A stretch of 64,000 nucleotides of DNA from Bugula neritina. Its lineage: Eukaryota; Animalia; Bryozoa. Position numbers and translations under genes: made by a program. How positions within the stretch are numbered: the first letter of the stretch is position 1; the number at the start of each line of letters is the position of its first letter. Of the stretch, positions 36,865 to 59,900 are shown piece after piece. The stretch covers positions 9,062,581 to 9,126,580 of the forward strand of contig OZ037767.1 in NCBI GenBank assembly GCA_964035545.1. The letters are read 5' to 3'. The notes beneath the pieces are model-generated. The model did not search any database. It saw only the letters and a program-made list of their open reading frames with translations, and was not told the origin of the DNA.

Positions 36865-37824
36865 GTTTATATTATTAGACATCGTGAAACCCAATGAGGC
36901 TACCTTAAACACAAAATGTCACATGCACAAGCAATACAGATTTCATAATAATTGTTGTTTTCCCACATTCAAGAAATGTTTTATGGTGTTTAAAGTGTAA
37001 TGATAAATACGTATAATTACCTTAATGATATAAAATATGGTTTAATTTGTTAATATTGCTCCATAATATATATGCAAGTATAATATTAATATTATGTTGA
37101 ATCTTTTGTAAATACAATCACTTTTCATTTTTACACGTCAATTTAATTAAATTGGCTTGTAACAAAAGTCTTAACCTATTCACTAGTTATTACTATTTCC
37201 ACTGCAAAAGTTAGTGCTTCTTTTAAATCAAAAATATTATTTAAACATTTACTCAGAAGTAGTGGTAAGTTAAGAAATAGTTTGCTACTTTAACAATAAT
37301 CCACAACACCTGTCTGCCAAAAAAAAAGAAATTATTTCATCAACAAACCTTTCATTTTACCCACAATCTTTGCTGATCTCTATAATTACGAGTACTTCAT
37401 CCTGCCAAAAAGTTGAGAACAATATAACACAAAACATTGTAACTAGCATAGACACCAATACATTTAATTACAGAAAAAATTCACCCTCCACATTCTACCT
37501 ACTTGTCATACAAAATACTAGAAAAAAACAATTATCAACTACGCATGAGTAGATTGCAATAACTGTTACCAGCTTGCTAAAACAGTTTTACAGTAAAAAT
37601 AATTATGGCTATTCACTCCTATTCGCAAATATTTGACATTTAGGTATATAAAAATAACGTAATTGTTCATTCAGTTCAATTTTACAAATCAAAATAATAC
37701 AACAAAAAATTAAAATTTTTACATGTGTATAACAACATGTGTACAGTTTTTACACTTTAACTTTGCAAACTTTACTTTCTTATCAGTTATTACAGTTTCA
37801 TTTTAAAATTGACATTTGTAATAC

Positions 37825-38101
37825 TGTAATGGGGCGTGGTTTACGCCTCATGCGTATCCCCCTGCCAATCAGAGAGTGATTGGCAATTATTGGATGAAGC
37901 CAAGCAGAACAATTTATATTAGTTAGTTAGCGTATACTTGCCGTGATGTAAAGTAACCTTGTACTACTACTTATAGAGATTTTTACGCCATTATTACAGT
38001 TTTATAATAAAGTCTTACACACGAAAATAAGAGTGAATTGCTTGTGACTAAATGCACATTGCTCACTAGAAGCCCACACAAACATTGTGCTTCGCACAAC
38101 A
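37825..38101 (+). repeat. 5' LTR
   Basis: TGTAATGGGGCGTGG...TTCGCACAACA, identical to 44965-45241. Contains GC box GGGGCGTGG, inverted CCAAT pair and AATAAA at ~38006. Confidence 0.97.
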
Positions 38102-38102
38102 G

Positions 38103-38120
38103 TGGTGGCAGCGGTGGGAT
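38103..38120 (+). promoter_or_regulatory. Primer binding site complementary to the tRNA-Leu 3' end
   Basis: TGGTGGCAGCGGTGGGAT, 1 nt after the LTR, is the reverse complement of ATCCCACCGCTGCCA-CCA of eukaryotic tRNA-Leu(AAG). Confidence 0.9.
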
Positions 38121-38153
38121 ATTTCTAGCTGAGACAATGAAGAGACGGAGAAT

Positions 38154-41100
38154 ATGACAGAGCACACAACGAAGCACCCGGGAGGTAAGCCAGCCAATTT
38201 CTTGCATATGGAGGAGGTGTATAGAAGTAAACTGACCGCTCCCACCTTCACGGGTGTAGAAGACGTAGAGCAATTCATTGAAGAATTCCACGATGTAGCA
38301 AACGTCGCTCAATGGCCGCCACAAGTAGCCCTCGTCAAGCTGCGGGAAGTATTGACGGAGCGCGCTAGACCGTTTGGACAAGGACGGAGCGTGGCGGAAA
38401 TACTCACTACACTACGGAGCCGTTTTGGCATCCCCGCTCTGGAAGCCAGAGCCCGTCTACAGGTGCTACGCCAGGCGGAAGGCACTCCACTCCGCGACCA
38501 CGTTGCCTTAGTGAAGAGGCTGGCGCGGAGCGCGTACAGCGACCTACCAGAAGCACACCGACGGTACTTTACTCTCATTGACTTTATGCAATCCCTAAAG
38601 GATGTGGGTCTTTGCCATCAACTACAGGCAAAGGGAGTGACCACCCTAGAAAGTGCCCTACAAGTCGGAGAAGACTACCTCTGGGCCGAACGGTTACATA
38701 CAAGGAAACCAGAAAGCACACAAGTCACCGCGGAGATAGCCCAATCACTTGGAGGGAAGATGGGCCAGCTGAGTACCAGGCTGAGACAGATGGCAAAGAC
38801 TCTTACTAATGCCGGGCCCCCTAATCAAGGACAAAAGAGAAAGACTACCCGGAGTGAGAGCAACAACCAGCCAGGGCCTCCCCGCTCCAGAGACCCCCAA
38901 CCCAGGAAGAGAGAACAACCCCAGGTATGGCAGAAACCACGAAGGACCACCCGCCCTCTTGGGCGACCGGAGCCGTTCGTGCTACCACTCACCAACCGCT
39001 TTAGCCAGCTACCGGAGACGGAGCTGGCCGGCGAGGTCCCTCGGGACATCGGAAGGGAAATAAACACCCCTCCGCCAAAAAAGCGGCGCTCGCCTACCAC
39101 CAAACGGACACCACGCCGTTTGACCGAGGCTACGCATGCTGGGGAGGTAAGGTTGCAGCCACATGGAGAAAGCTACTTCCTGCCCGGGAAAGTAGCCGGC
39201 AAGGCCGTCACGTTCTTGCTGGACTCCGGTTGCAACACAAACCTTCTCAGCAGACGAGTCTTCGATGCCCTCCCTGCCCAGGTGAGGAAGGGATTAGCTC
39301 CCTACACCGGGGAACCTGGCACCCTCGCAGACGGGTCGTGTATCCCTTTCTACGGTGTTGTAGAGCTGCCTGGTCGCGTCCGCGACCAGGCCATCCAAGA
39401 GACATTTATCCTCAGCCAGCTGGAAGAGGATGCTATCCTGGGGACGCCGTTCTTGAAACGACACCAGTGCCACATAGACTTCCATAAGTCCGCCATACTA
39501 ATGGCAGGCCGGGAGCTCTCTTGTGTCGACAAGTTCGGTCGCCCCCTGGTCGGGGGCGTGCAGGTGGTCCGTAACTGTACGGTACCCGGCCGCTCCCGGG
39601 CGACCATTCACTGTAGAGTGAATGACCGCCAGCTCTCTGGACTAGGGGTTGTCGAAGGAACGCACCAGAGAATCCAACTCGCCAGCAGCTTAAATCGGCT
39701 GACTGACCGAGGGGAGATCTTGGTGCAGTGCGTCAACCCCTTTTCAGAGTCGGTGACACTACCGTCTGGATCCCTATTGGGCCGTTTCCACACGGTCCAA
39801 GAGGGAGACATAGGACCGTCGCTGGGCGAAGCGACGGAGGGTCCCCAAGAGCGCCCGTCTGTACGGCGGGGGACCGTCCCGGAACACGTCCAGGAACTAT
39901 ACGAGTCAGCCTGCAAAGGCTGTGCGGGCAACAAGGAGCGCCAGGCTATGGCCCAGTTGCTGCGCCAGTATGGGGACGTGTTCAGCAGCGGAGACCAGGA
40001 CATGGGCTTAACCAAAGCCATCTGTCACGAGATACCGCTAGCTGCCGGGACTTTGCCTATCCGCCAACCTACCCGGAGACTGGGACCAGAGAAGGAGAAG
40101 GAGGTCAGCCGACAAGTCCGGGATCTTCTGGACCGCGGCATCGTAGAGCCTGCGCATAGTGCGTGGAGCTCGCCGGTCGTCCTGGTCCGGAAGAAAGACG
40201 GCAGTTGGCGGTTCTGTGTGGATTACCGCAAACTTAACAGCGTAACCATACAGGACGCCTACCCTTTACCTCGGATCGATGAATCCCTGGACGCCTTAGC
40301 CGGCAGCAAGTACTTCAGTACTTTAGACTTGCTGAGCGGTTACTGGCAAGTCCCCCTCAGTCCCGACGCCCAGGAAAAAGCGGCGTTCATCACCAGGGAC
40401 GGGCTGTGGAAGTGGAAGGTACTGCCCTTCGGGTTAACCTCTGCCCCTGCCACCTTCCAGCGGCTCATGGAACAGGTCCTCAGCGGCCTCCACTGGAAGA
40501 CACTGCTCGTCTACCTCGACGACGTCATCGTGATCTCCCCAGACTTCGCGACCCACGTCAGTCGTCTGAGGGAGGTCTTCGAACGACTCCGAGGTGCCGG
40601 TCTCAAGCTTAAACCTTCCAAATGCGCTCTCTTGCAGCCGGAGGTGAAGTACCTGGGGCACGTAGTCGGCCGTAATGGCGTGGCGACGGACCCCGATAAG
40701 GTGCGGGCTGTGGCCGACTGGGTCACCCCCCAGGATTTGACCGGACTCCGGGCTTTCCTGGGGCTGGTAGGGTATTACAGACAATACATACCAGACTTTG
40801 GGGGAGTTGCAAAGCCACTAAATCGGCTCACCGCAAAGGGGGTGGCCTGGCAGTGGACACCAGTCGAACAGAGGGCATTCGACAGTCTCAAGAGCCGCTT
40901 GCTAGAAGCTCCAATCCTGGCCTACCCAGACCCCACTCTGGAATATATCCTTGACACAGACGCCAGTGACCAGAATGTTGGTGCTGTGCTGTCGCAAGTG
41001 CAAGAGGGCCGTGAAGTAGTCGTAGCTTACTACAGCAAATCACTCTCACCTCCAGAGCGCAATTACTGCACCACTCGCAAAGAGTTGTTGGCAGTAATTA

Positions 41101-43445
41101 AGTCAGTGAAACACTTCCGGCCTTATCTCTACGGTAGGCCGTTCCGCTTGCGGACGGACCACGCCTCCTTGATCTGGCTGTGCAAGAGGGCTGAACCGTC
41201 CAGTCAAGTCGCCCGATGGCTTGAAGTCCTAGCCGAGTTTTCATACCGAATCGAACACCGACCCGGTAGGAAACACGGCAATGCGGATGGACTGAGTCGG
41301 CGACCGGACGAGGGGTGCAAACAGTGTCACAACATCGAGAGAAGGGACGGGGGTCCCCCAAGATCCGAGTTGGCGACACTGGACCACCCTGGAGTGAGCT
41401 ACGATTGGGACCAAGGTCAACTCAAGCCAAGGAGCCCTGACCCACCAGAGGCTGTCAACAACCTCCGCGCCAATCCTGTCTTAGCTCGTAATGTCAGAGA
41501 GCTGCAGAAACTCCAGGAGGACCTCCCTGGGGTGGTAGCCGACGTATATCGAGCTAAACGGGAAGGGCGACGACCCAGCGAAGAACAGCTGCGGCAGGGG
41601 TGCGCCGAGTTACGGCTGTACTGCCAACGCTGGGACTCCCTGCGGATCGGGCCAGATGGTCTGCTGACCATCACCTTGGCCGCCGACCAGGGACACCCTG
41701 GTCGAGAAAGGGTGATCTGCCCAACCGCCATGCGCCGGGAGCTAGTATGGGACACCCACCGACAGGCTCACGCCGGAATCCGGAGGGTGCTTACCAAGCT
41801 AAGGCTCCGGTGGTATTGGCCCCAAATGGAGCGTGACGTCCGACTAAGGATCAAACAATGCGAAGTCTGCCAGGCCAGCAAGCATGGCCGTCTTCCTAGG
41901 GAGGCGGGACGGCGTAGGCTCTATGCTGGCAGGCCCTGGCAGGTGGTAGCTGTTGACTTGGTCGGACCCATGCCCCTCACCCCCAGAGGAAACAGCTGGA
42001 TTCTAGTGTTGACCGACCACTTCACTAGGTGGGCAGACGCACTGGCTATCCCAGACGCGTCTGCCCCGACAGTGGCCAGCACACTAGACCAGCGTGTATT
42101 CTGCTACTTTGGGCTGCCCGAGCAACTACACTCGGACCAGGGGTCGCAATTCCAGTCTCAACTGATGAGCGACCTCTGCCGCCTCTGGGGAGTAAACCAA
42201 AGTAGGACCACTCCGTACCACCCTCAAGGTAACGGAGTGGTCGAACGCAACAACCGGATGCTGGGCGACGCACTCCGCAGTCTATTACTCGGCCGAGGCC
42301 AGGAGGAATGGGATCTCGTGTTGCCACAGGTTATGAGGGCCTATCGCAGTACGCCCCATACCAGCACCGGCGAGACCCCCAACCTCTTGACCTTCGGTCG
42401 TGAGACACGAGTGCCCGACCACCTCGCCTATCACATTCCAGAACCAGAATACTCTGTCCACGAGTACGCTGGGGAAGTGGTGGAGCGTCTGAGAGTCGCA
42501 CACGAAATACTGCGAGAGAAGCAGTGGCAGGTGCGACAGGAAGACGCTGATGAACCACCTCTCTACCAGGCCGGAGACTGGGTCTGGATGATCAACTACC
42601 GTAGGCGTCGAGGACAGGCGGCTAAATTACAGCCTAAGTTTGTAGGACCCTACGTAGTAGTTGAGGTGATGCCCAATCACACTTACAAGTTGGAGCGGTC
42701 TGGGCAAATATCTGTCCAGAATGAAGCCCGCTTGAAACCCTATTGGGCTAGCCCAGGTGCAGCCGGGGGTGCCCCCCCATTGTTAGAGCCCAGGAGGCAG
42801 ACAACAATGCGCGGGCGGCGGCGGCATAAACCCAATGATGAGTGGGTCATGCCACGGACAGAAGACTTGGCAAGGCAAGAGAGACCGCCTCCCCCAACGG
42901 GGCCACACCCTCTGCCTCCAGAGCCAAGCCGTCCGACCCCAGAGCTACCACCACCACTTCCGGAAATAAGTATACTTCCAGAAGTGCAAAACCCCCACAC
43001 GGGAGGGGCTCCGTCCGGAGAGAACAGAGGGGAAGAAGGAACAACAGCTGACGGGAGGCAGGAAACACCACCAGTGGAGAATAACAACCCACTGGTGAGT
43101 ACACCACCTCCCTCACCAGCTACACCACCTTCCCCGGCGTCTACCACTAGTACATCTCCCCTCCTTGAAAGGGGACAACGCACTAGAAGGCCCCCAGCTT
43201 ATCTTCAAGACTTCGTATGCGACCGCGTTACAAGCGGCAGGTATGGAAGTTCAGCTGGGCGCCGTACGGAAAGACTGGCAGCAAAGCGTGGGAGTTATGA
43301 ACACCACGGAAAAACCAAGTTTTGCGAAAACGGAATAGCGAGTGGAATTACCACTCTCCGGGCACACATTTCCGGTCTCGCACAACAAACACGCTGCCCA
43401 GTCTTTTCCTACGCCGACGCGGTCAAGAGTAGACGTGCTTTCTAA
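38154..43445 (+). CDS. Gag-Pol polyprotein (capsid-like Gag, aspartic protease, RT, RNase H, integrase), 1763 aa
   Basis: APTFTG..EQFIEEF Gag start; LLDSG protease; RFCVDYRKLN, LPFGL and YLDD RT; TDASD...ELLAV...TDH RNase H; H-x3-H...CEVC zinc finger, VDLVG/HSDQG/VERNN DDE triad and GPY module of integrase; RT-RH-IN order is Gypsy-type. Confidence 0.97.
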   Translation: MTEHTTKHPGGKPANFLHMEEVYRSKLTAPTFTGVEDVEQFIEEFHDVANVAQWPPQVALVKLREVLTERARPFGQGRSVAEILTTLRSRFGIPALEARARLQVLRQAEGTPLRDHVALVKRLARSAYSDLPEAHRRYFTLIDFMQSLKDVGLCHQLQAKGVTTLESALQVGEDYLWAERLHTRKPESTQVTAEIAQSLGGKMGQLSTRLRQMAKTLTNAGPPNQGQKRKTTRSESNNQPGPPRSRDPQPRKREQPQVWQKPRRTTRPLGRPEPFVLPLTNRFSQLPETELAGEVPRDIGREINTPPPKKRRSPTTKRTPRRLTEATHAGEVRLQPHGESYFLPGKVAGKAVTFLLDSGCNTNLLSRRVFDALPAQVRKGLAPYTGEPGTLADGSCIPFYGVVELPGRVRDQAIQETFILSQLEEDAILGTPFLKRHQCHIDFHKSAILMAGRELSCVDKFGRPLVGGVQVVRNCTVPGRSRATIHCRVNDRQLSGLGVVEGTHQRIQLASSLNRLTDRGEILVQCVNPFSESVTLPSGSLLGRFHTVQEGDIGPSLGEATEGPQERPSVRRGTVPEHVQELYESACKGCAGNKERQAMAQLLRQYGDVFSSGDQDMGLTKAICHEIPLAAGTLPIRQPTRRLGPEKEKEVSRQVRDLLDRGIVEPAHSAWSSPVVLVRKKDGSWRFCVDYRKLNSVTIQDAYPLPRIDESLDALAGSKYFSTLDLLSGYWQVPLSPDAQEKAAFITRDGLWKWKVLPFGLTSAPATFQRLMEQVLSGLHWKTLLVYLDDVIVISPDFATHVSRLREVFERLRGAGLKLKPSKCALLQPEVKYLGHVVGRNGVATDPDKVRAVADWVTPQDLTGLRAFLGLVGYYRQYIPDFGGVAKPLNRLTAKGVAWQWTPVEQRAFDSLKSRLLEAPILAYPDPTLEYILDTDASDQNVGAVLSQVQEGREVVVAYYSKSLSPPERNYCTTRKELLAVIKSVKHFRPYLYGRPFRLRTDHASLIWLCKRAEPSSQVARWLEVLAEFSYRIEHRPGRKHGNADGLSRRPDEGCKQCHNIERRDGGPPRSELATLDHPGVSYDWDQGQLKPRSPDPPEAVNNLRANPVLARNVRELQKLQEDLPGVVADVYRAKREGRRPSEEQLRQGCAELRLYCQRWDSLRIGPDGLLTITLAADQGHPGRERVICPTAMRRELVWDTHRQAHAGIRRVLTKLRLRWYWPQMERDVRLRIKQCEVCQASKHGRLPREAGRRRLYAGRPWQVVAVDLVGPMPLTPRGNSWILVLTDHFTRWADALAIPDASAPTVASTLDQRVFCYFGLPEQLHSDQGSQFQSQLMSDLCRLWGVNQSRTTPYHPQGNGVVERNNRMLGDALRSLLLGRGQEEWDLVLPQVMRAYRSTPHTSTGETPNLLTFGRETRVPDHLAYHIPEPEYSVHEYAGEVVERLRVAHEILREKQWQVRQEDADEPPLYQAGDWVWMINYRRRRGQAAKLQPKFVGPYVVVEVMPNHTYKLERSGQISVQNEARLKPYWASPGAAGGAPPLLEPRRQTTMRGRRRHKPNDEWVMPRTEDLARQERPPPPTGPHPLPPEPSRPTPELPPPLPEISILPEVQNPHTGGAPSGENRGEEGTTADGRQETPPVENNNPLVSTPPPSPATPPSPASTTSTSPLLERGQRTRRPPAYLQDFVCDRVTSGRYGSSAGRRTERLAAKRGSYEHHGKTKFCENGIASGITTLRAHISGLAQQTRCPVFSYADAVKSRRAF

Positions 43446-43480
43446 TCCATCTGCATCCAAGCTTGAACGTCGAGTATGAG

Positions 43481-43488
43481 TATAAATA
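43481..43488 (+). promoter_or_regulatory. Candidate internal TATA box upstream of ORF2
   Basis: TATAAATA 50 nt upstream of the ORF2 ATG (43531), in the short gap between pol and ORF2. Confidence 0.45.
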
Positions 43489-43530
43489 CCGAGTTCCCAG
43501 GTAAGCTTGCTTAGATCTAACACTCCACTA

Positions 43531-44625
43531 ATGGAAATAGATCTCACCTCAGTCAACTCTGATTTAATCGATCTGATTGAATCACAGTTACTGGAGACAG
43601 AGTCACACGTGAATGACGACGAGAACATAGTAATGGCGGATGATCTACTAGATCTGGAGCTTGATAATATGTCTCTCAGTCAGTTTACACGTTCTGACAC
43701 AGTCTCTCGAGTGCCGTATAAAAAGATGCATGACTCTCAGACTAGTAACAGTCGATTGTCATCAGAATTATGCTGTAAAGATCAAACTCGATCTAACAAT
43801 AATTCTGCTCTTTTAGACGCCACTCGCTCTCCTGACTACGGAGATATGCCACCATTAGAACTGGCCTGGAACAGTGAGACACCTCCTACCTCCCTACCAG
43901 ACGTGTTACTTCAGCAGCATAGCTGGGTCGCACCAGAGACGGAAAAGCTGATTCAACTACACCGCGGCCATGACGGATGCACCACCTGCAGGCTGTGTCA
44001 GCAGCACTTCTCCACCCATCGCCGTTTGCGTGTCCACGTACCGCAGCACTTCCTAACTACTCTCTGTCCCTGTGGTGAATATAGTTACCACAGGGACTAC
44101 ATTCTCAGGCACCAGCGTACTATGGACTGCCATGTAGGACACTTGTACGATGTGGACAAATACAACTTCCCCACCTTTCTCAATCTAATCAAACCTTTCA
44201 TTAAAGATCTCCCCCGCTTTGAACGGCTCAAACACGGATTCCCCTCACCTCGCATCATCACTCACGGACCATGTCCAAGACCTCCCGGACATAGGAAACC
44301 TACCAAGCCGTCTCACTCTCCTCCCGCACAGACCATACCTCGTCCATCCACCCTACCTCGAGTTCTACTTCACCGAGTTGAGATACCCCAAAAACGACGT
44401 TCCCCCTCCCCCACTCCGATGCAGCCTTCTTCTAAACGACGATGGAGACCCTCCTCCCCGAAACGGCAGGCCCCTACAGCTCGCAACATAAAAGAAGTCG
44501 AGCTCCGTATGTATGAATTAGAAGCCGAGATTCAACGGTTGACTCCCAGAGTTGCTGCGGCCACTTCCGAAATGAAGACCCTTAAAGCTTCCGTGGCCCT
44601 CCTCAAACGGGGCGATCAAGACTGA
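43531..44625 (+). CDS. Retrotransposon accessory ORF2: C2H2 zinc-finger / coiled-coil protein (364 aa from ATG; frame open from before TTG 43507)
   Basis: Intact ORF inside the LTRs. CRLCQQHFSTHRRLRVHVPQH is C-x2-C-x12-H-x3-H; CPCGEYSYHRDYILRHQRTMDCH is a second variant finger. Acidic N-terminus, Pro/Ser/basic region, C-terminal heptad repeat; no signal peptide or TM segment. Confidence 0.85.
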   Translation: MEIDLTSVNSDLIDLIESQLLETESHVNDDENIVMADDLLDLELDNMSLSQFTRSDTVSRVPYKKMHDSQTSNSRLSSELCCKDQTRSNNNSALLDATRSPDYGDMPPLELAWNSETPPTSLPDVLLQQHSWVAPETEKLIQLHRGHDGCTTCRLCQQHFSTHRRLRVHVPQHFLTTLCPCGEYSYHRDYILRHQRTMDCHVGHLYDVDKYNFPTFLNLIKPFIKDLPRFERLKHGFPSPRIITHGPCPRPPGHRKPTKPSHSPPAQTIPRPSTLPRVLLHRVEIPQKRRSPSPTPMQPSSKRRWRPSSPKRQAPTARNIKEVELRMYELEAEIQRLTPRVAAATSEMKTLKASVALLKRGDQD

Positions 44626-44953
44626 TGGCAGCTGTATCCTTCCCCTCTACTCCTCTGACTATCCACACCTGCAGGTGGTGACGATCTCTCTCTGTTCCTT
44701 CCCTCCTCTGACCGTCTCTAGTCGGTGTTGCACGATCTCCGTACATGTGATTACAATATTCCGTTTTACTATTTTTTTTATATATATACTTTTCTCATGT
44801 CAATCTAGATTGCTCAATAGTGTGTAAGCTCTTTTGGAAATATCCACCTTACGTGATGTTCAGATCTTATATTTTTTTTTTTTGGTTTTTTTTGTAATAA
44901 ATTGTTTTATTTTTATTTTTTTGGGTGCATATCAGGAAGGTATGCTTCCTGCT

Positions 44954-44964
44954 GGGGGGGGCGG
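44954..44964 (+). promoter_or_regulatory. Polypurine tract
   Basis: GGGGGGGGCGG immediately before the 3' LTR. Confidence 0.85.
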
Positions 44965-45241
44965 TGTAATGGGGCGTGGTTTACGCCTCATGCGTATCCC
45001 CCTGCCAATCAGAGAGTGATTGGCAATTATTGGATGAAGCCAAGCAGAACAATTTATATTAGTTAGTTAGCGTATACTTGCCGTGATGTAAAGTAACCTT
45101 GTACTACTACTTATAGAGATTTTTACGCCATTATTACAGTTTTATAATAAAGTCTTACACACGAAAATAAGAGTGAATTGCTTGTGACTAAATGCACATT
45201 GCTCACTAGAAGCCCACACAAACATTGTGCTTCGCACAACA
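44965..45241 (+). repeat. 3' LTR
   Basis: Identical to 37825-38101 (offset 7140 bp), followed by the TSD ATAC. Confidence 0.97.
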
Positions 45242-46000
45242 ATACTTGTAATCACACGCATGACTAGTGCTCACGGCTTGGTAAAATATTTATTAAAATA
45301 AAAATACAGGCATTGTCACTACTACATGCCAAACCAAAATTAAAAGTATATAAAAAAATACATTCAATTTGCAATTTGTATAATCCTAATCTAGACTTAT
45401 ATTGACAACTTAATCGCTACAAACGATGGTCAATCTCAAACTCAACATAATTATAAAAAATGCAATGATTTATTACAGATCAAATAAAAGAGATCAAGTT
45501 ATTACTCACACTGCAGAGAAAAGAAAACAATAATGAAGTATGCAATATCAACTTTCATCTGCATCATCTTTATAGCTGTTATCCCTATTAGTATTACTAT
45601 AATCTAAAGCATTTTGTGTTAAAATGAAGCAATTAATGATTAATCAATTCAAGTTTTTTTATTATAACTATATCAATATCATTATTAATAATAATAACAA
45701 TATTATAGTTATGATATTAATATAAATTATTCAATTTTATATTGATATTGTGATTACTGATTATCAATATGATTATGAGTCTTATCAATTTGAATTAGAG
45801 CGAGAGTTAACCTTGCGACTTATCTTTTGAAATGAAGTAAAAGAACAATAAGATAAATAAAAACAAGTTGAAACGTTTTAAATAGTTGCTTGAGACCCAA
45901 AAAACAACACTACTACGAACTTATATGATCATATTGATATTATTTCATCAGTAAACCCCACATTAGGATTCTAGTAGTAGTACAGCACTTTGCTTGCGAG

Positions 46001-49200: not shown

Positions 49201-52200
49201 ATTTCCACACACCATTATTTCATTCTCCCACCTCACCATTCTTTCTACCCCACCCTAAACCCTTGTAGATCTCAGGTAGGTAAAGCAAAGCATTATTAAC
49301 AGTGTTATTTTATTCCTCTATTTCAATCGTCTTGCAACTACAATCTGGTGATAGAAACTTTGGTTTCTCACCACATTCTCTTAGTCTGCAGCCTCACTTT
49401 GATTGCTCCTTTAGCCTCAGTAGTCAAATCACTTCCTGTTTGACCTTGACATATTCTTTGACTCTTGAGGCTATGCCTGGCTGCACCTCCTCGTACTCTG
49501 CCAGACATCCTTTAATCTTTAGTTGATGCATAGATTGTGCTGTAGCATGAATACATGGTTTTGTTGACTGCAATACTAGTGTCAGTAATGATGCAATACT
49601 AGTGTCAATACTGGGTACATCTAATATATAAATAGCAGGTGAGGTCTCTCAGGATTACAAAGTTACATATTATTTCTGTGCACAGTTCACCAATTTCTCC
49701 TCTTGTGTTGTGCGTAGAGTCTGATGGAGCCACTCTGGCAACTATTGATAAAGTGATAGTCATAAGAAACAAGAAGCGGGAAGGGCTAATTAGGTCAAGG
49801 GTCAAGGGCGCTGACAGCGCTACTGGGAAAGTGCTGACCTTTTTGGATAGTCACTGTGAGTGTAACGAGAAGTGGCTGGAGCCGCTGCTTTCCCGGGTTC
49901 ATGAGGTAAGATGTCTTCAGCAGCCATTGTTGTACATGCTGCGGCGCTGAAATTGAAGATGATTTCCTTTTATTGGAGTCATTTTACTTCATTTAATACA
50001 CACCAGCAAATTAGGGCTGAAAATTGAACTTTTGGTATTTTGAGTTTTAGTATACTGTTTTTAATTATATATATTAGGAACAATGAAAATGATCTTGCAA
50101 CAATAAATCGTAATGTCATTACCATAACTGCAAAGCGGAAATTTATTTCTATTGGGCACACCCATCATTAAAATTTTTAAAACTATCATTTTAATCATTC
50201 TATTCACATCTGAAACATGTTAGTTAAACAGAGGAGAGGTCAATTTATTTAGCTCTAGTGTTGATGTATTCCACAAGTTGGACTTCCTGTAAAACACGAC
50301 AATATGTGATGTGGTAGCAGTAGGTTACTGCTCGTGAAGGCTATTAGGCTTATATTATGGCCGCAAGAAGGCTTAGCTCAACAGACACACCGAGTGATGT
50401 ATTCAAATGCTTCCGCTGTGACCGCATATGCAGATCACTGATAGGACTCAGAAGTCATCAAGCTACTCACAAACAGCTGTTTGCAGACATCATACTCTAC
50501 TTAGAGGGATAGCAAAGAGAGAGAGAGAGACTATTAGTATTAGTATTACTATTAGTATTACTCACTTAGAGGAATAGCAGAGAGAGTGAGGGGGAGGGAG
50601 AGAGAGAGAGGGGGAGGGGAGGGGAGGGAGAGAGAGAAAGGGGGAGAGGGAGAGGGGGGAGAGGGAGAGGGAAAGAGAGAGAGATTATTGCTACCACATT
50701 ACAACGTTGTGTAGTTTATGTTCTATTTGAAGGATTAAAGGGTTTAGTGTTTGTGGGTTGTCAAATAGGTTTCATAGAATGATATGGTTCATTGGTTTGA
50801 TAGTTTAATGCCATTTACTAACTGTTGTGCAAAAGTCATTATGAAAACTTACATTATGGCTAAAAGTGTACCAAAAAATGTAGAAAATAAGTGAACTTTA
50901 CTAGGTATTTAATTATTTGGTTTTATCTGTTAACACTACATTAATTTTGGGCAAAAAATAGATATATTAGCAGCTAGAATTTTATTAAATGGGCAAAAAC
51001 TGAAGAAACACAATGTGTACTAAATTGAGTAAATTCACTCATAAAGTTGTGTTGCTGTTAAAAAATAGTTTATACTCTAATCAGAGGTTTCTAGTTTGTT
51101 GAAAGTGTTAAGACCTAAAATGTATATATAACAGCTAATTTATTATATCCACCACTGCTGTTTATATTATATATCCACCACTGCTATTTATATTATATAT
51201 CCACCACTGCTATTTATATTATATATCCACCACTGCTATTTATATTATATATCCACCACTGCTATTTATATTATAAAAAACTCACCCAAGTTTATAGTCA
51301 CTATACCTGAGAAAATCCCCTGATGAAAGGGTTTTTAGAGCGGGCTAAGGACTTATTCATATGTGGCACAGGAGCAATTAGGAATTGTTGCTCTTTCCAA
51401 CGGCAACATTGTGCTCAAACCACGGATCTTGTGTTTACTAGGCTATTACTCTAGCTATTACACCATGACTGCTCCATACTTCCATTTATATCATGCTGAT
51501 GCTATATTTAGAACCGCAAGGCAGTTGTCTCCCCTGTGATTGATGTCATCAGCATGGATACATTCGCATATGTGGCAGCTGCTAGCAACTTGAAAGGAGG
51601 GTTTGACTGGAACCTGGTGTTCAAATGGGACAGCATGACTAAGCAGGAGATGGCAGAGAGAGCTAAGGACCCACTGTCACCCATCAAGTAACTTCTTTCT
51701 GTCATATGAGTTGTGATGACATTTGCTTGCCTAAAGTGTATAGTCTAGTATAGTATAGTACAGTATAGTATAGTATATTACAGTATAGTATAGCACAGTG
51801 CAGTATAGTAGAGTATAGTAGAGTATATTATAATATAGTGCAGCTGACTTCAATGCTGACACTAAAGGAATACACAAGTTTTATATTTCAAAGAATCAAA
51901 GTGCTTTGTTCTAGTATTTTCTAGTACTTTTCATAATAAAGCAACTTTGAAGGATTGGCATAGAGAAATAGAACAAGAAAGTGTAGCCATTCCATGAAGA
52001 CATTGTTTAGTGTTGATGTACCACTGTGTGGTGTTGTAGGACTCCACTGATAGCTGGTGGACTGTTCAGCATTGAAAGGAAATGGTTCTATGACGTTGGT
52101 AAATATGATATGCAGATGGAAATCTGGGGCGGAGAGAATCTAGAAATTTCTCTTAGGATTTGGCAATGTCACGGTTCACTGGAGATTCTACCGTGTAGTC

Positions 52201-55200
52201 GAGTGGGTCATGTTTTTCGTAAGCAGCACCCTTACACATTCCCCGGAGGCAGCGGCAATGTGTTTGCAAAGTAAGCAAGTCAATTGAAACTTATTACTCA
52301 TATAAAGATAAAATTTCTCTTGCAAGATATTTCTATTTGCTATTTCAGTATTGTGAGGTGTTTGCAGTCTTAGTGAGGTTTTCACTACTGAGTAAAGTGT
52401 GAATACAAATTTCTACTGTAGAAACACTCGTCGAGTGGCTGAGGTTTGGATGGACTCGTATAAAGAGAATTACTATAAAGCTGTCCCGTCAGCTAGATAT
52501 GTTAAATATGGAAAGTAAGTGTTTCGCAAGATTTCTCTTTACTGTCACATATTACTGCACTGTTGATAGCTCTATCAATCTGCTAGGTAGTTTATTATAG
52601 CACCACTTGTTATGGTAGCTACTTATACAGTTTTCAAGTATCATTACAGCTTGGACTTTCAGAGCAATGTGCAGCTTTTTCTCTGTCTGACGATGAAGCA
52701 GTAAATTGATATCAATATGATGCATGACTTCATAAAATATATTATTTCATGAAAGGTAGTAATGTTGTCACGCCCAACTATAATTGTTAAGAACTTGGTG
52801 CTATTATTTTAAAAATATTGCAGGTTTAAGTGAAATACTCGCATGTATGTTTTAAATGTGTGTCTGAGGATTGGTTGGGTTTAAATGGACTTTTCTCTGT
52901 CCACAGCTCCTGTATTTTAGGGGGATCTGGTTTATGTACTTTTTGGTTTTTGAATTTCAGTGCCTAGTGAAGCTCATCTTGTTATAATAAGTGTATATCC
53001 TCTTCAATTTTTAAGCTTCACTTGTTTATGAACTTTAGTATTATGGAGAGGAAACAACTTCGAGAGAGGTTGAAATGCCAGCCTTTCCAATGGTACCTGG
53101 ATACAGTATACCCAGAGTTGAAGTAAGTTACTTAGTCTCATTACTTAGTCAATCTGCATGTCAACCCAATCCCTTGTCTCCACATAATCCACCAGCTGCC
53201 AAATATCACAAATTATTGATTATAATCAACATGACTAACACTAATGTAATAATCAAATCCATGCTTCAATATACTATGTAATATATTCTCTAACTTCTAC
53301 TCAGTACTCACTACATCTGGCCTTTCATCAGTTGCCATCCTCGATAGTTGGGCTGGATCAACTGCCAATCTGATAACACATGCTCTTGCGATTATAACAT
53401 TGAAATCTCCGTTACCCTAAACCTGACTTTCTCATTCTACACAGTTCTATATATTCAAATAGCTTCTCGCAAACAAAATTGTGAATGTTCTATGAACCTT
53501 GCATTGCAAAGTTGGTCAGAATTAATTCTTAATTTAATTAAATTCCAAATTTCTCTAGGATTGGTCACAATTAATTTTCAATTTATGAAAAATGGAAAGA
53601 AATTTGCTATAAAAACATTGTACAATAAAAACATGAAATGTACAAGTTAAACTGTGGTGAGCAAGAATGAATATTTTCAACTAAGTTCCAAGTCACTACT
53701 GTTTAATAGCACTGTTTCAGCGTTACATTTTTAAATGAAGAATAATGTTCAGAAAAATTTCTTCAATGTTGCTACCTGATAAATGCTGTTTGTTTACAAC
53801 TTGGCATAGGGTTGCTATGACTACCATTTGATTTTCTTTCTGTTTTAACATCCCTCAGTTTAGTTTATCAACCCATCTGTGCATAGATAAAGACAATCAA
53901 CTATATATTTTTTATAACCACTGCTACGCATGTCTATTTTAAGATATCATTGCAAACATTGAAATTGCACCAACTTTATTGCTGCCTTTTTGATCTGTCA
54001 GACTTATCAGGTGATGATTACTGCTAACCTGCTAGTGGCTTACTGTGCGTAGTAGAACTATCAGTGCTAATGTGTTTGTTGGTGATTGGTTTACCCACTG
54101 TTTTGTTTGTAGGCTGAAGACTTGAAGCTGCCTCATCCACCCTACAAACTGCTCATCACCTTATATTATGTTCTATGTGATTGATCACTCGGTCTCTTTC
54201 TTAAATTGCCTTTTTTAGTCTATATACTTTATATTAGAAGTCAATTACCACATTTCTATTACAAATAATTCTGTGTTTGATATGATTATTAACTCAATTA
54301 TATAGATCGAACATACATTTGATTTTAATTGATTTGATTTGCTCCGCTTTACCTTCAAAAATATAGTCATTATTTATTTTAACATTTTACTCCTGGACAT
54401 GATTTTTTTATTATTTTACTAGCTCTCATTTTTTGGATATGATTTCAATGATGCCATTAAGGTGCTACAATACTCTTTAGCCATATGTTAATCTATGTTA
54501 TGCTAAATACATTTACTAAATACTTTAAAACAGGGCTTGGGCACATTTTATAGGTTATTAAATTGTGTGTGTTTTTTATATTATATATATATACACAATA
54601 CATTTGTTATAGCCAATTTGGAGTTTGTTGGTTTTGTTTATCATTTAGAAGTGTAAAGAAATCGCCGTATGTCTAATGAGTAATGCTTTCTGCATACAAC
54701 ATTGAATATATTTCAGTCTGTGATTGTAGCACCATGTTTAGATACCAGACATACAACCCTACTGGTACTGTTATCATCTCTAATCGATTTCGATTTGTTT
54801 TGGTTGTTTTTCAAAAAGTTTAAGTCAACTCATCTGTAATGGCTGTTCCCTGTTTAAAAAATCTTCTATTTTTCTGTGTAGACGATCTATTCACAGCACA
54901 AAGACTGGTAAACTTTCGCCTGATGGAATGCAGTGCGTACAGATGAGTAGGAGCAGCTTAATCAAGATGGCCGACTGTGATGAAAGTGAGTAACAAAACA
55001 GGCTGGCATCACGTAATTGCTGTGTTTAATGTATGTTATGTTTATATATATACACACACGCGCACGCATATATTTACATATACATATGTATGTGTGCGTT
55101 AGTGTGTATACATGTATGCACACACATTGCTGTGCTATGTAGGTGACAGCCAGCAGTGGAAATATAACAGTGACTTTCAGCTACGGCAAGGCGACCTCTG

Positions 55201-56170
55201 CCTGTCTATTGTGGAGGAAGGCGCAGCACCTGCAGTACACGCTGATAAATGTGATGAGAATTCAGAGCTGCAGGTAAAATATTTACAGGTGCTATATTCT
55301 AGTTACGCAGGCTTGAAGCTCGGGAGCCGAAAAGTGGCTGTCATTTTGATTTGTAGTAGAACTCTATGCAGGTGGCCGTTTTCTCATTTCTCTGCTTCAT
55401 TTTTGTCTTCCTTAAAAAATCTTCCAAAGTAAGTCGAATTAGTTTCAATGTCAGCCAGCACTGTAGCAGTCGTATTGACATGTGGCAAAGCTGGGTGCAT
55501 TATATGTATAATACAGTTTGCATGGTAGTATGTTGATGAGAAAGCTGATAGGTGAGAAATGTGTGCAGCTTTTCAAGTCTACTTTATTATAGCTATAATT
55601 GATGTAGAGTTAGGCAAAAACCCACGGAAGTTTATAGTCACTATCCCTGTGAGAACCTCTGTTGGAAAGTGTTTTTTGAAGCAGGCTAAGGACTTATTCA
55701 TATGTAACACAGACACCATTGTGACTGAATGCTTTTGTTAACATTACCAATGGTCTTTACTAGGGTTCGAACCTATGGCTTTGTGTTTACTAAGCCATCG
55801 CTTTAACCTCTAGACCATGGCTATTCTCTAGTTGTACATAAAGTTAGTAGATGTGTTTCTATTCTTCCCAATATTTTGTGGTATGTTATCGTTCACTGGT
55901 TAACTGGAGGGTAATATCCCTGGAATCTCGGGTCCGTGCATATTCATGATGCTCACTACCCTGCTCACTGCTTTTAGTACTAATATCGAAGTGATGTGTA
56001 TATTGCCCCGCACAATTTGATTGTAGAAATGGATAGTTGAAATGGACACTGGCTCAGTACGCCATATTGCACTGGATCTGTGCGTCATCAAACTCTCGGC
56101 CAATAAGCTTTCTCTTACAGACTGTGAGATTGAGTCTCGGGAAATTCTATGGTTTTATGTGACAGAGTAA
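46290..56170 (+). CDS. GALNT2: Polypeptide N-acetylgalactosaminyltransferase 2-like, ~532 aa, 12 exons
   Basis: Exons 46290-46394 ([24 protein letters not shown], signal anchor), 47778-47950 ([14 protein letters not shown]), 48702-48803 ([17 protein letters not shown]), 48964-49031, 49718-49905 (FLDSHCE, DxH), 51512-51687, 52040-52270 (WGGEN; [21 protein letters not shown]), 52422-52514, 53039-53122, 54882-54985, 55143-55273, 56027-56170. Phases are consistent (1599 nt). Confidence 0.9.
50517..50683. repeat. GA-rich low-complexity tract
   Basis: gagagagggggagggag runs. Confidence 0.8.
51139..51273. repeat. 26-bp minisatellite, 5 copies
   Basis: tttatattatatatccaccactgcta; ccacc at 51149, 51175, 51201, 51227 and 51253. 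Confidence 0.9.
51277..51475 (-). mobile_element. tRNA-derived SINE
   Basis: aactcacccaagtttatagtcactat ... catgactgctcc, the reverse complement of the family. Confidence 0.78.
55617..55828 (-). mobile_element. tRNA-derived SINE
   Basis: agtttatagtcactatccctgtgagaac ... gggttcgaacc (B box) ... tctagaccatggc. Confidence 0.78.
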
Positions 56171-56955: not shown

Positions 56956-59900
56956 ATGGGGTGGGGGGTCTCCTATGGTTTATTGTTTTCTTTGCTACGA
57001 ATAAGTTTTACATCTGGTAAGTAAAATATGTTTATTTTTACAAAGTAGTAGTGGTGTTGTTCACCTGCAGATAGAATATATAAGTGTTACAAATGTGGTT
57101 TTAATTAGCATTTTTTGAGGTAAAATGATGAGATTGGTTAACTTTATTTCCCTTGATTTCGTGGAATCAAAGACACAGCAATTCAAATTTCCCTTCACTG
57201 GAATGAAACTGATTTTTCTTAAATTCAGTTGTCAAGCTGATCAACTGGACAATGTCCTACGTACAATCAGCTATGCGCCGTCTACTGTAAGCAACGCAAA
57301 TACCAGAACTCAGATGCATAATAAAAGTTTTAAAATATCAAGCAGTGAATAAGGTGTATCACAGTATTATTGAGGTAGGTGCAGTAATGAAGAAATTGAG
57401 AAAAGCTTGTGTTCTAAATTAAAAATGTAGCAAAAGAATTTCAACCCGCACCCCAAACTAAAATTTAATAATTAAATTGAAGAACTTAAGCTATCTCAAT
57501 TTCTCCACTATTGCTCCTAAATGGTATTATTCTGCAGCAGTTCACAGTTTGACGAATGCAAAGCTTTTGTTTCTATGCCTTGGCTTGTATCTTCATTTCC
57601 TCTGTACAGCTCAATGTGGGAGTCCACAGAGTTTCTCTCATGCTACACCTGAGTCCTCCGACACTTCCTCTCCAGTCGGCACTGAACTGGTTTACCACTG
57701 TGATGCTGGTTATGAGTTCGTAACAGGAAGTAACACACATACAGTAGAATGTTTGGTTGATAATTCGTGGGAAGTTATAACTGACTGCGAGAGTAAGTAT
57801 GAAGGGCAGTGGTGGGTGCTGGCCTCACTTCTCGGGATAATTTGATTATTCACACTTTTTTGCTTGATGACATCATGTGTAGACTTGTTTGCGCTACGAG
57901 TAGACTTATACATACTATTTATCACTGACAGGAGTTTACTGTCCAGTTTTCCCTGGAGATGTAGTCACAGCTCCTAGCAATGCTATTCAGTTTGGGGATG
58001 TGGTAGAACTATCTTGCCCAGACATGAATACGGAGAAACTGGTTGGGGCTAGAATAAATGAGAAGCTTTCTGTGACTTGTACGTCTAATAAAACATGGGA
58101 TAACTGGGATGGTGAGATCACAGATGGCTGCCTTCGTAAGTTTAGTGCATATTGGTACATGTATATATCACATAACTGTATTCACACATATATCATAACT
58201 GCATGAACATATCTTATGCGTGAGATTGAAAATCATTTTATGAGTATGTTATACTACAATGTATTTGTAGAAATGTTGTTATATTAGAACGAAATTAACT
58301 TTACTTTCATACTTACAAAATAAGTAGTATTTTTAAACACATGTCTAACCCATTTGCAATAATATCTATTTGCATTGCGGCTTATTTTTAAGGAGAATGT
58401 AATTCTGAATCATTGATATTTTCAAGTATTGTTTCAATTTAAGGAGCAATCAACTGAATAGTGCAAGAATTCATATCAGCTTGTGGTTTGCAAACATCAA
58501 AGTGAATTACAATTTGTAAAACAGAAAAGTCTGTTTTCATCGCATTTGATACGAGTGTCAGTCTGTACTTTGCAGCCATAGAGTGCGTCAACCCTTTAGA
58601 CGCTCACTCAGTTGGAGACTCGGCTGACACCGCCCGATACACATCTGTTTCCTTCACATGTGATACAGGCTATCTATACTCTGATGGCTCTTCTACAAAG
58701 CTGTTCACATGCAATGCAGACGCTGAATGGGAAAGTGGAGGAACCACCAGCTGGAGCTGCCTTCGTGAGTTCCACTTCTGTGTTCACAGCTCCATTTCTG
58801 ACCAGCCAATCTGTTTGTTCTCACTTAGCTCAAGGCTCAACCAGCTATTAGTTTACCATCTGTTGTAGCTCAAATATGTACGGACCTGCGCAGTATGACT
58901 GCCTTGGAGCATGTAACCTTGGAACCTGACACCAGTCTGGTAGGGGTGGAAGTGACCCTAACCTGCCATACTGGTTATACGTTTCCTGACAGCAGTGTAC
59001 AAGTGACAGCGTTGTGCTATGGTAACCAGACTTGGAACATTCAGCCTGTGGACTGTGAACGTGAGTAGAATATGACAGACCACACTTAAATATGATCTTT
59101 TATTTAATACTTTGATTTTACTTTTAGCAAAAGTTGTATGCATCATGTAGGAGGCTTTATTAACTGTTTGTATATTATGTGTAGATGTGTAGAAATACGT
59201 AACTCTATTACAAGTTGTATTCTGCTGTCACACTCTGATATATAAAGATGCTAAGTGTACTATAAATCACAACATATAATATATCATTGCAGCTAAAATC
59301 TGTCCTGAAATATTCAACGTATCAAATGCCAACGCCAGTACAACTGACAACTGGTATCCTACTCAAGTTAACTTCACCTGCTTTTCATCCTTCACCTTTC
59401 CGGATGGTTCTACAGTCAGATCTACTCAGTGTAACCAGTATGGGAGATGGTCTGATGTCATCCCTCCTTGTGGTGGTGGGTTGTCCCTACTAGTTACAGT
59501 ATTAGTTACTATACAGTATTAGTTAATATCTAGTATTAGTTACTGTTCAGTATTGGTCACTATCTAGTATTAGTCACTATCTATAAGTATCAGTTACTAT
59601 ACAGTATTAGTCACTATATAATATTAGTCACTATCCAGTATCAGTTAATATACAGTGTTGTTTTATCATCTCAAACCCTATGTCTTAGCTCGCATTCTAA
59701 ATTTGTTGATGTCCTATAAATTTGCTGCCACATCTATAGAATAATTTTGTCTAGCAATGTTGAGTAGTCCATCTTTGCTCTAGCCATTGCTCAAAGTTAT
59801 TACCAAATAATACAAATCCAATAATTGTTATTGAATATCTCTATTGCTATTTGTAGCCCTTAACACTGATGGACTTGCTAAGAGTTTGATTTTTAGTAAT

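Follow-up and report, generated by a model that had tools for sequence, protein, structure and literature searches.

The 364-codon open reading frame (ORF) between pol and the 3′ long terminal repeat (LTR) of a Gypsy retrotransposon from the bryozoan Bugula neritina, here called ORF2 (P0002), is very probably a real nuclear accessory gene. The window, i.e. the whole stretch of 64,000 nucleotides that was analysed (contig OZ037767.1, positions 9,062,581 to 9,126,580), carries the element at 37825-45241 (7,417 nt) and ORF2 at 43531-44625, on the + strand. A transcriptional job, in which ORF2 would act as a nuclear trans-regulator of the element's own transcription, is proposed at somewhat less than an even chance. 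For their transcription, most Gypsy elements are thought to depend on host factors. A lineage that keeps a zinc-finger gene over a large evolutionary distance would offer a direct test of whether env-less retrotransposons encode their own regulators.

Sequence anatomy and predicted structure of ORF2

A preliminary description of this DNA had reported an intact ORF of 364 codons between pol and the polypurine tract (PPT), and 43531-44625 is indeed open, lying between the pol stop at 43445 and the G-rich PPT at 44954-44964 (+ strand). The acidic N-terminus was confirmed (net charge -15 over the first 50 residues); its Leu-rich part, amino acids (aa) 1-46 (43531-43668), is predicted to be mostly disordered and is a candidate activation domain. 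The first finger was found as described, C153-x2-C156-x12-H169-x3-H173 at 43987-44049; F160 and L166 are canonical, and the finger carries the full C2H2 signature C-x2-C-x3-F-x5-L-x2-H-x3-H. The variant second finger (C179-x-C181-x12-H194-x5-C200-H201, 44065-44133) was also present, with one correction: the fourth ligand is C200 (CxC-x12-H-x5-C, 44065-44130) and not H201, because C200 was invariant (62/62 covering homologues) and position 201 was variable (H in 38, Y in 17 and F in 6 of 61).

Both fingers lie in a double zinc-finger domain, aa 121-240 (43891-44250), for which AlphaFold predicted one compact fold. In the alignment-based model this region was a single confident unit (pLDDT about 77-93 per 10-residue block), built in order from a helix containing W132, finger 1, an inter-finger linker strand, finger 2, a YDVD strand (YEVD-like across the family) and two helices; a long helix spanned aa 316-363 and the remainder was disordered. 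The single-sequence model was unusable (mean pLDDT 45). P0002 itself matched no Pfam zinc-finger family, zf-C2H2_4 was matched by 10 of 34 family members at E ≤ 0.1, and finger 1 alone matched C2H2 fingers of solved transcription factors in a PDB profile search (best E 1.3e-6). With Foldseek, neither PDB nor BFVD yielded a fold match at E ≤ 0.001; the top PDB rows were weak matches to C2H2 proteins (best E 2.1, aa 121-240 not being folded alone), all rows of the VIA list were coiled coil, and the Atlas clusters nearest to ORF2 were unnamed. The double finger is predicted to be one compact zinc-binding domain of no catalogued Pfam family.

Downstream of the domain, the basic SP-rich stretch noted earlier was confirmed (K288RRSPSP and K302RRWRPSSPKR). 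It covers aa 288-312 (44392-44466), is Pro-rich and non-helical in the model, keeps an RKRRW-like motif in close homologues and may serve as a nuclear localisation signal (NLS). ORF2 holds nine S/T-P sites. The six reported heptads were recovered, with I,M,I,V,M,V at the a positions and V,L,L,A,L,L at the d positions, and a crude scan found heptads in the last 75 residues of 18/26 long homologues. The corresponding coiled coil (aa 316-361, 44476-44613) was predicted to pair with itself: aa 308-364 gave an antiparallel homodimer model that scored 0.32, whereas the best of 3 controls scored 0.01 (contact agreement at least 83%, pLDDT at least 77). The mark used for such scores was reached by 21/30 microbial homodimers and 0/23 single chains, and by 17/29 eukaryotic homodimers (7/16 from animals) and 0/30 single chains.

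The absence of a signal peptide, transmembrane segment or furin site also held on inspection: the maximal 19-residue hydropathy was 0.66, R-x-K/R-R was absent, and hydropathy exceeded 1.6 in 1/71 ORF2 homologues. On these sequence features ORF2 is not env. The phrase "in place of env" is accurate as to position; nothing indicates that this lineage ever carried env.

Conservation, linkage to gag-pol and host counterparts

A word-seeded search returned 71 ORF2 homologues (45-83% identity) among 2615 candidates, and a profile search at E ≤ 0.001 returned 290 clusters at 50% identity, 150 of which were among the matches listed; a further search for ORF2 relatives yielded close family members alone. 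Over the 71 homologues the finger core was 83% and the acidic N-terminus 76% identical, compared with 42% for aa 101-120 and 53% for the Pro/basic linker, an unevenness of the kind expected from function. W132 and seven Cys/His residues were kept in more than 90% of the covering homologues, and Leu was almost invariant at the heptad d positions; near-invariance of the zinc ligands, W132 and the d positions indicates that the motifs of ORF2 are not due to chance. The variation within the element's family points the same way: at 26 variant sites of ORF2, a sample limited to the 40 listed of 369 variant rows, which tempers the test, 19 changes were synonymous compared with 8.5 expected for random placement of the same base changes (p = 1e-4), and 17 fell at third codon positions. 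A second reservation is that end-to-end alignment was obtained for 11 of the 71 close homologues, the other 60 being contig fragments or decayed copies, as is expected because this is a transposon family. Hundreds of related contigs cover the ORF2 stretch at 80-100% identity, which makes the family multicopy. Judged by these substitution patterns, ORF2 is a real gene under purifying selection. A separate segment, aa 58-100 (43702-43830), is predicted to be disordered and was 85% conserved in close homologues, like the finger core.

The linkage of ORF2 to Gypsy genes was followed in other sequences. Protein-pattern scans confirmed no locus among 119 metagenome stretches, nor among viral contigs (0/31 for ORF2, 0/3 for the integrase). 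Searching with a degenerate DNA motif turned up 44 loci (27 in metagenomes, 14 in genomes and 3 in viral sequence), of which one (L024) was a true homologue; the remaining loci matched the motif alone and were rejected as ORF2 relatives. At L024, a long open frame carrying the domain at 33% identity stops 17 nt before a PPT, beyond which lie one LTR, the primer-binding site (PBS) found in the present element, and then gag and protease at 39% and 60% identity. The order of this locus (ORF2-like gene, PPT, single 719-nt LTR, PBS, gag) could reflect an LTR-sharing tandem pair, a circle or a collapsed assembly.

Fusions were surveyed by comparing 243 proteins with ORF1, the gag-pol frame of the element. 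P0213 and P0216 join a related Gypsy protease (38%, E 3e-44) and the domain in one chain, in P0140 the second half of ORF2 is fused to the integrase SH3 region (76%), and P0117 has an integrase-tail motif in frame ahead of the domain (E 0.002); P0191 showed the integrase-tail motif alone (E 0.21) and P0152 a likewise weaker tail match. The frames of P0213 and P0216 are 1145-1208 aa long, in which reverse transcriptase (RT), RNase H and integrase were not detected, and probably represent a non-autonomous derivative. The arrangement at L024 and the protease and integrase joins imply that the Gypsy link of the domain is old, and by this evidence ORF2 is element-borne and a long-standing part of a Gypsy lineage. 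The earlier claim of an element-borne zinc-finger ORF therefore stands, as a selected, non-env gene with a zinc-binding motif pair, an NLS-like stretch and a coiled coil. The homologue at L024 adjoins PPT-LTR-PBS-gag of another Gypsy element; annotated bryozoan genes also carry the domain.

The same joins raise an unlikely alternative, namely that ORF2 is an integration or chromatin tether, whose double finger binds a chromatin mark, a DNA feature or a host protein and so guides or protects the integration complex. The C-terminal chromodomain of chromovirus integrases would be the parallel, here split off as a separate gene (a Pfam search detected no chromodomain in P0001 or P0002); the in-frame position of the domain after the integrase-tail motif in P0117 and P0191 and the packed, non-canonical fingers, which suit protein or chromatin binding, agree with it. 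However, a conserved Met and an acidic N-terminus of its own mark ORF2 in this element and its close family, the single-base indels of other copies (listed variant rows) cluster in the 85-nt spacer between pol and ORF2, and the integrase-tail fusions, known from proteins alone, may be deletion products of dead copies.

When 30 distant representatives were looked up, 4 clusters contained named proteins, all bryozoan: Watersipora subatra XP_067940963/4 and XP_067944745, and Bugula neritina KAF6040922/3. These proteins have one or two domain copies, mostly with a C-terminal coiled coil. Three proteins from Bugula and Watersipora (P0221, P0224 and P0176) carry an extra N-terminal motif before the domain copies, and the two Bugula genes have adjacent locus tags. 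In an unrooted tree of 68 domains (131 columns), retro-linked domains stood at both ends, more than 1 substitution per site apart, and the bryozoan host proteins were not confined to one side of a branch; an AU test did not reject the grouping of the 6 retro-linked rows apart from the 6 bryozoan ones (p-AU 0.17). The sharing of the domain by annotated bryozoan genes means that capture or domestication occurred, in either direction, and the identity of 18-35% to the host proteins means that a capture was not recent. The scatter of the host proteins would fit repeated domestication. A zinc-binding domain family common to elements and bryozoan host genes offers a clean case for distinguishing capture from domestication.

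These host genes bear on two further explanations. ORF2 could be a decoy or adaptor directed against host defence, binding a silencing or restriction factor rather than nucleic acid through its finger domain or coiled coil. A host counterpart to mimic exists in the annotated bryozoan genes with the same domain and coiled coil, and an antiparallel dimer would suit such a role; yet the basic finger-1 helix is retained in most of the family and the host genes may derive from the element rather than be its source, and we regard this explanation as improbable. That ORF2 is a functionless passenger, a recently captured fragment of a host gene, is very improbable indeed: host-like homologues are annotated and 60/71 close homologues are partial, but the synonymous excess and region-specific conservation, the depth of the tree between retro-linked domains on its two sides, and the terminal position shared with L024 all speak against it.

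Expression and proposed function

The spacer between pol and ORF2 (43446-43530, 85 nt, + strand) contains TATAAATA at 43481, 50 nt 5′ of the ORF2 ATG. This is the first + strand TATAAAW past the 5′ LTR; none occurs in the 5.3 kb of ORF1, and the chance of its location in the spacer is 0.02. No variant fell within the box among the variant rows listed, and the base just before the box is variable. A splice that would join gag to ORF2 in frame, as in Drosophila env, was considered and rejected: the donor at 38184 is in phase 1, which neither acceptor (43500 or 43514) matches. An internal promoter is the best guess because such a splice fails, and the spacer TATA box suggests one for ORF2. The Oikopleura element Tor4b has an internal promoter in the same post-pol spacer, where it drives env (PMC4402516).

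The element holds four strong splice-donor motifs. One of them, the CAG|GTAAG site at 43500, and a T-rich acceptor at 44935, just 5′ of the PPT, could together excise ORF2 and spare the PBS and PPT; none of the rows listed (contig data) showed the 43500/44935 joint. Structured RNA spans 39010-43950 on the + strand (z down to -5 against synonymous-codon shuffles), with pol segments more stable than any of 200 shuffles (z -7.6 at 41980-42250 and -7.4 at 39550-39820). The gag start and the 3′ half of ORF2 were without such excess folding. The folding of the 5′ part of ORF2 (z -2.9) was not taken as a special RNA element, because 14 of 27 element windows reach z ≤ -2.5, and Rfam gave 0 matches.

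A Rev- or CERV-like function would make use of such RNA: ORF2 would be a nuclear, zinc-binding oligomer that attaches to the structured genomic RNA and either aids its export or guards it against splicing or decay. CERV of the element Cer1 is nuclear, phosphorylated by proline-directed kinases, Cys-containing and required for genomic RNA export (PMC10309623), and the S/T-P sites of ORF2, the four donors and the strong pol structure are compatible with a similar role. An acidic N-terminus with a C2H2 finger fits transcription better, and no splice joint was seen among the rows listed; we consider an RNA factor unlikely, to the same degree as the tether.

In the transcriptional reading, which draws on the acidic N-terminus, the basic helix in the finger, the NLS-like stretch, the predicted dimer and a promoter that is likely its own, a short mRNA would start at the internal TATA promoter of the pol-ORF2 spacer, and the protein would enter the nucleus via its basic stretch. 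It would then act as a dimeric zinc-finger protein that stimulates the element's transcription in trans. Finger 1 may bind DNA or chromatin through its basic helix, at the LTR and perhaps also at the internal promoter, while the acidic Leu-rich N-terminus may recruit co-activators or counter silencing. In the 68 domains compared, basic residues prevail in the finger-1 helix at +2 (R/K in 56), +3 (R in 45) and +5 (R/K in 52), and finger 2 retains R-D at +1/+2. Foamy-virus Tas follows the same logic as the mechanism proposed here. We infer a Tas-like logic reached with an unrelated protein.

Several observations weigh against this proposal. Position +6 of finger 1 is mostly V/I/L (48/68), TGEKP linkers occur in 0/68 domains, the linker being aromatic-hydrophobic, finger 2 starts with CxC and has a variable fourth ligand, and the basic helix is lost in one subgroup (P0117, P0109). 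The fingers, as aligned and modelled, do not look like a canonical DNA-reading array. The AlphaFold models were built on an alignment of 30 sequences with zinc omitted. The earlier term "dimerising" agrees with the homodimer model of the coiled coil; the geometry is antiparallel, unlike the parallel bZIP, and the score is borderline, exactly at the mark, which was reached by 1/7 eukaryotic dimers without an older solved relative. As solved structures include many coiled coils, the pass may also stem from structures already known to the model. The TATA box was noticed post hoc, and in the more distant copies P0131, P0079 and P0152 translations that read through the spacer differ at this place. 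Finally, a tether accounts better than a separately regulated activator for the domains joined in frame to the integrase tail.

A broader version, in which an old invertebrate Gypsy clade is "complex", with its own zinc-finger transcription factor, an internal promoter, Tas-like feed-forward on the LTR and a module domesticated more than once in bryozoans, is put forward as doubtful, at about one chance in four.

The element in its setting and among known systems

The window is AT-rich animal DNA (GC about 33%). The element has the Ty3/Gypsy features of TG...CA LTRs, target duplication, PBS, PPT and pol order PR-RT-RH-IN. It is flanked by a 4-bp target-site duplication, ATAC (left 37821-37824, right 45242-45245). 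The 5′ LTR (37825-38101, + strand, 277 nt, TG...CA, AATAAA at 38006) and the 3′ LTR (44965-45241, + strand) are 100% identical, which, with the complete parts, indicates a young and apparently intact insertion. The PBS (38103-38120, + strand) is complementary to a tRNA 3′ end, which we take to be that of tRNA-Leu. ORF1 (38154-43445, + strand) encodes gag-PR-RT-RNaseH-IN in one frame, in Gypsy order, with a tail of the SH3/GPY-F type; its RT matched generic RT clusters only in the Atlas. Within the LTR, a 9-bp inverted repeat at 37863-37885 holds two CCAAT boxes that face each other and may be the site of a dimeric factor. A six-codon upstream ORF (38137-38157) starts 17 nt 5′ of the gag ATG and overlaps gag out of frame. 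The AT-rich flanks of the element contain many satellites and small dispersed repeats, and host exons at 49636-49950, 55103-55432, 57462-57845 and 58506-58868 encode glycosyltransferase family 2, ricin-type lectin (GalNAc-transferase-like) and sushi-repeat domains.

Foamy-virus Tas and HTLV Tax are 3′ regulatory genes, and Tas is served by an internal promoter, binds DNA and carries an acidic activation domain. Unlike ORF2, both belong to Retroviridae with env and are without a C2H2 pair; neither gave a sequence or fold match to ORF2, the viral Foldseek search having none at E ≤ 0.001.

The brtn gene of Boty is said to resemble a Zn2Cys6 transcription factor. It stands with GENE23 of Grande and with Retand among the accessory ORFs located between pol and the 3′ LTR (PMC7264820, PMC8365987); the available part of PMC8365987 names brtn and describes no ORF2-like gene. 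GENE23 is nuclear, has its own promoter and has been proposed to be regulatory (PMC7264820). Accessory genes have also been noted for Tat and fungal chromoviruses (PMC2774666). Like ORF2, the plant and fungal ORFs of Grande, Retand and Boty are a family-wide extra gene before the 3′ LTR, but they are antisense and unrelated in sequence. The Gypsy-like elements of bdelloid rotifers carry ORF3s that share the sense strand and non-env status of ORF2 and differ in being enzymes (GDSL, DEDDy; PMC5408684). Oikopleura Tor shares the position of the spacer promoter (Tor4b), whereas its gene is a true env (PMC4402516).

CERV of Caenorhabditis elegans Cer1 is a non-env accessory protein of an animal Gypsy-type element that is nuclear and oligomerises (PMC10309623). 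ORF2 is likewise non-env, with a Cys-based motif, and is proposed to be nuclear, oligomeric and a regulator of its own element. CERV differs in being made from a spliced mRNA, in its G-like and M domains and C4 loop, and in acting in RNA export (PMC10309623); ORF2 has a single exon, a C2H2/C2HC pair, an acidic N-terminus and a coiled coil, and the likeness between the two is one of description. The statement that 3′ regulators are a feature of complex retroviruses is too strong as an exclusive claim, as CERV and the plant and fungal accessory ORFs are published precedents. No such ORF appeared in the available parts of surveys devoted to LTR elements of annelids, metazoan Gypsy elements with env, metazoan zinc-finger genes and Troyka (PMC8220671, PMC8556966, PMC13524379, PMC10547256, PMC12440569), and the full-text literature gave no description of the ORF2 family, with Repbase, most subscription journals and supplements outside its coverage.

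Classical C2H2 transcription factors share the signature of finger 1; ORF2 differs from them in its lack of TGEKP, in its CxC second finger, and in the W-helix, YEVD strand and helices that make a larger unit of no Pfam family. Accessory non-env ORFs in Gypsy elements are known, and what appears to be new here is this family, together with a domain that has no Pfam entry.
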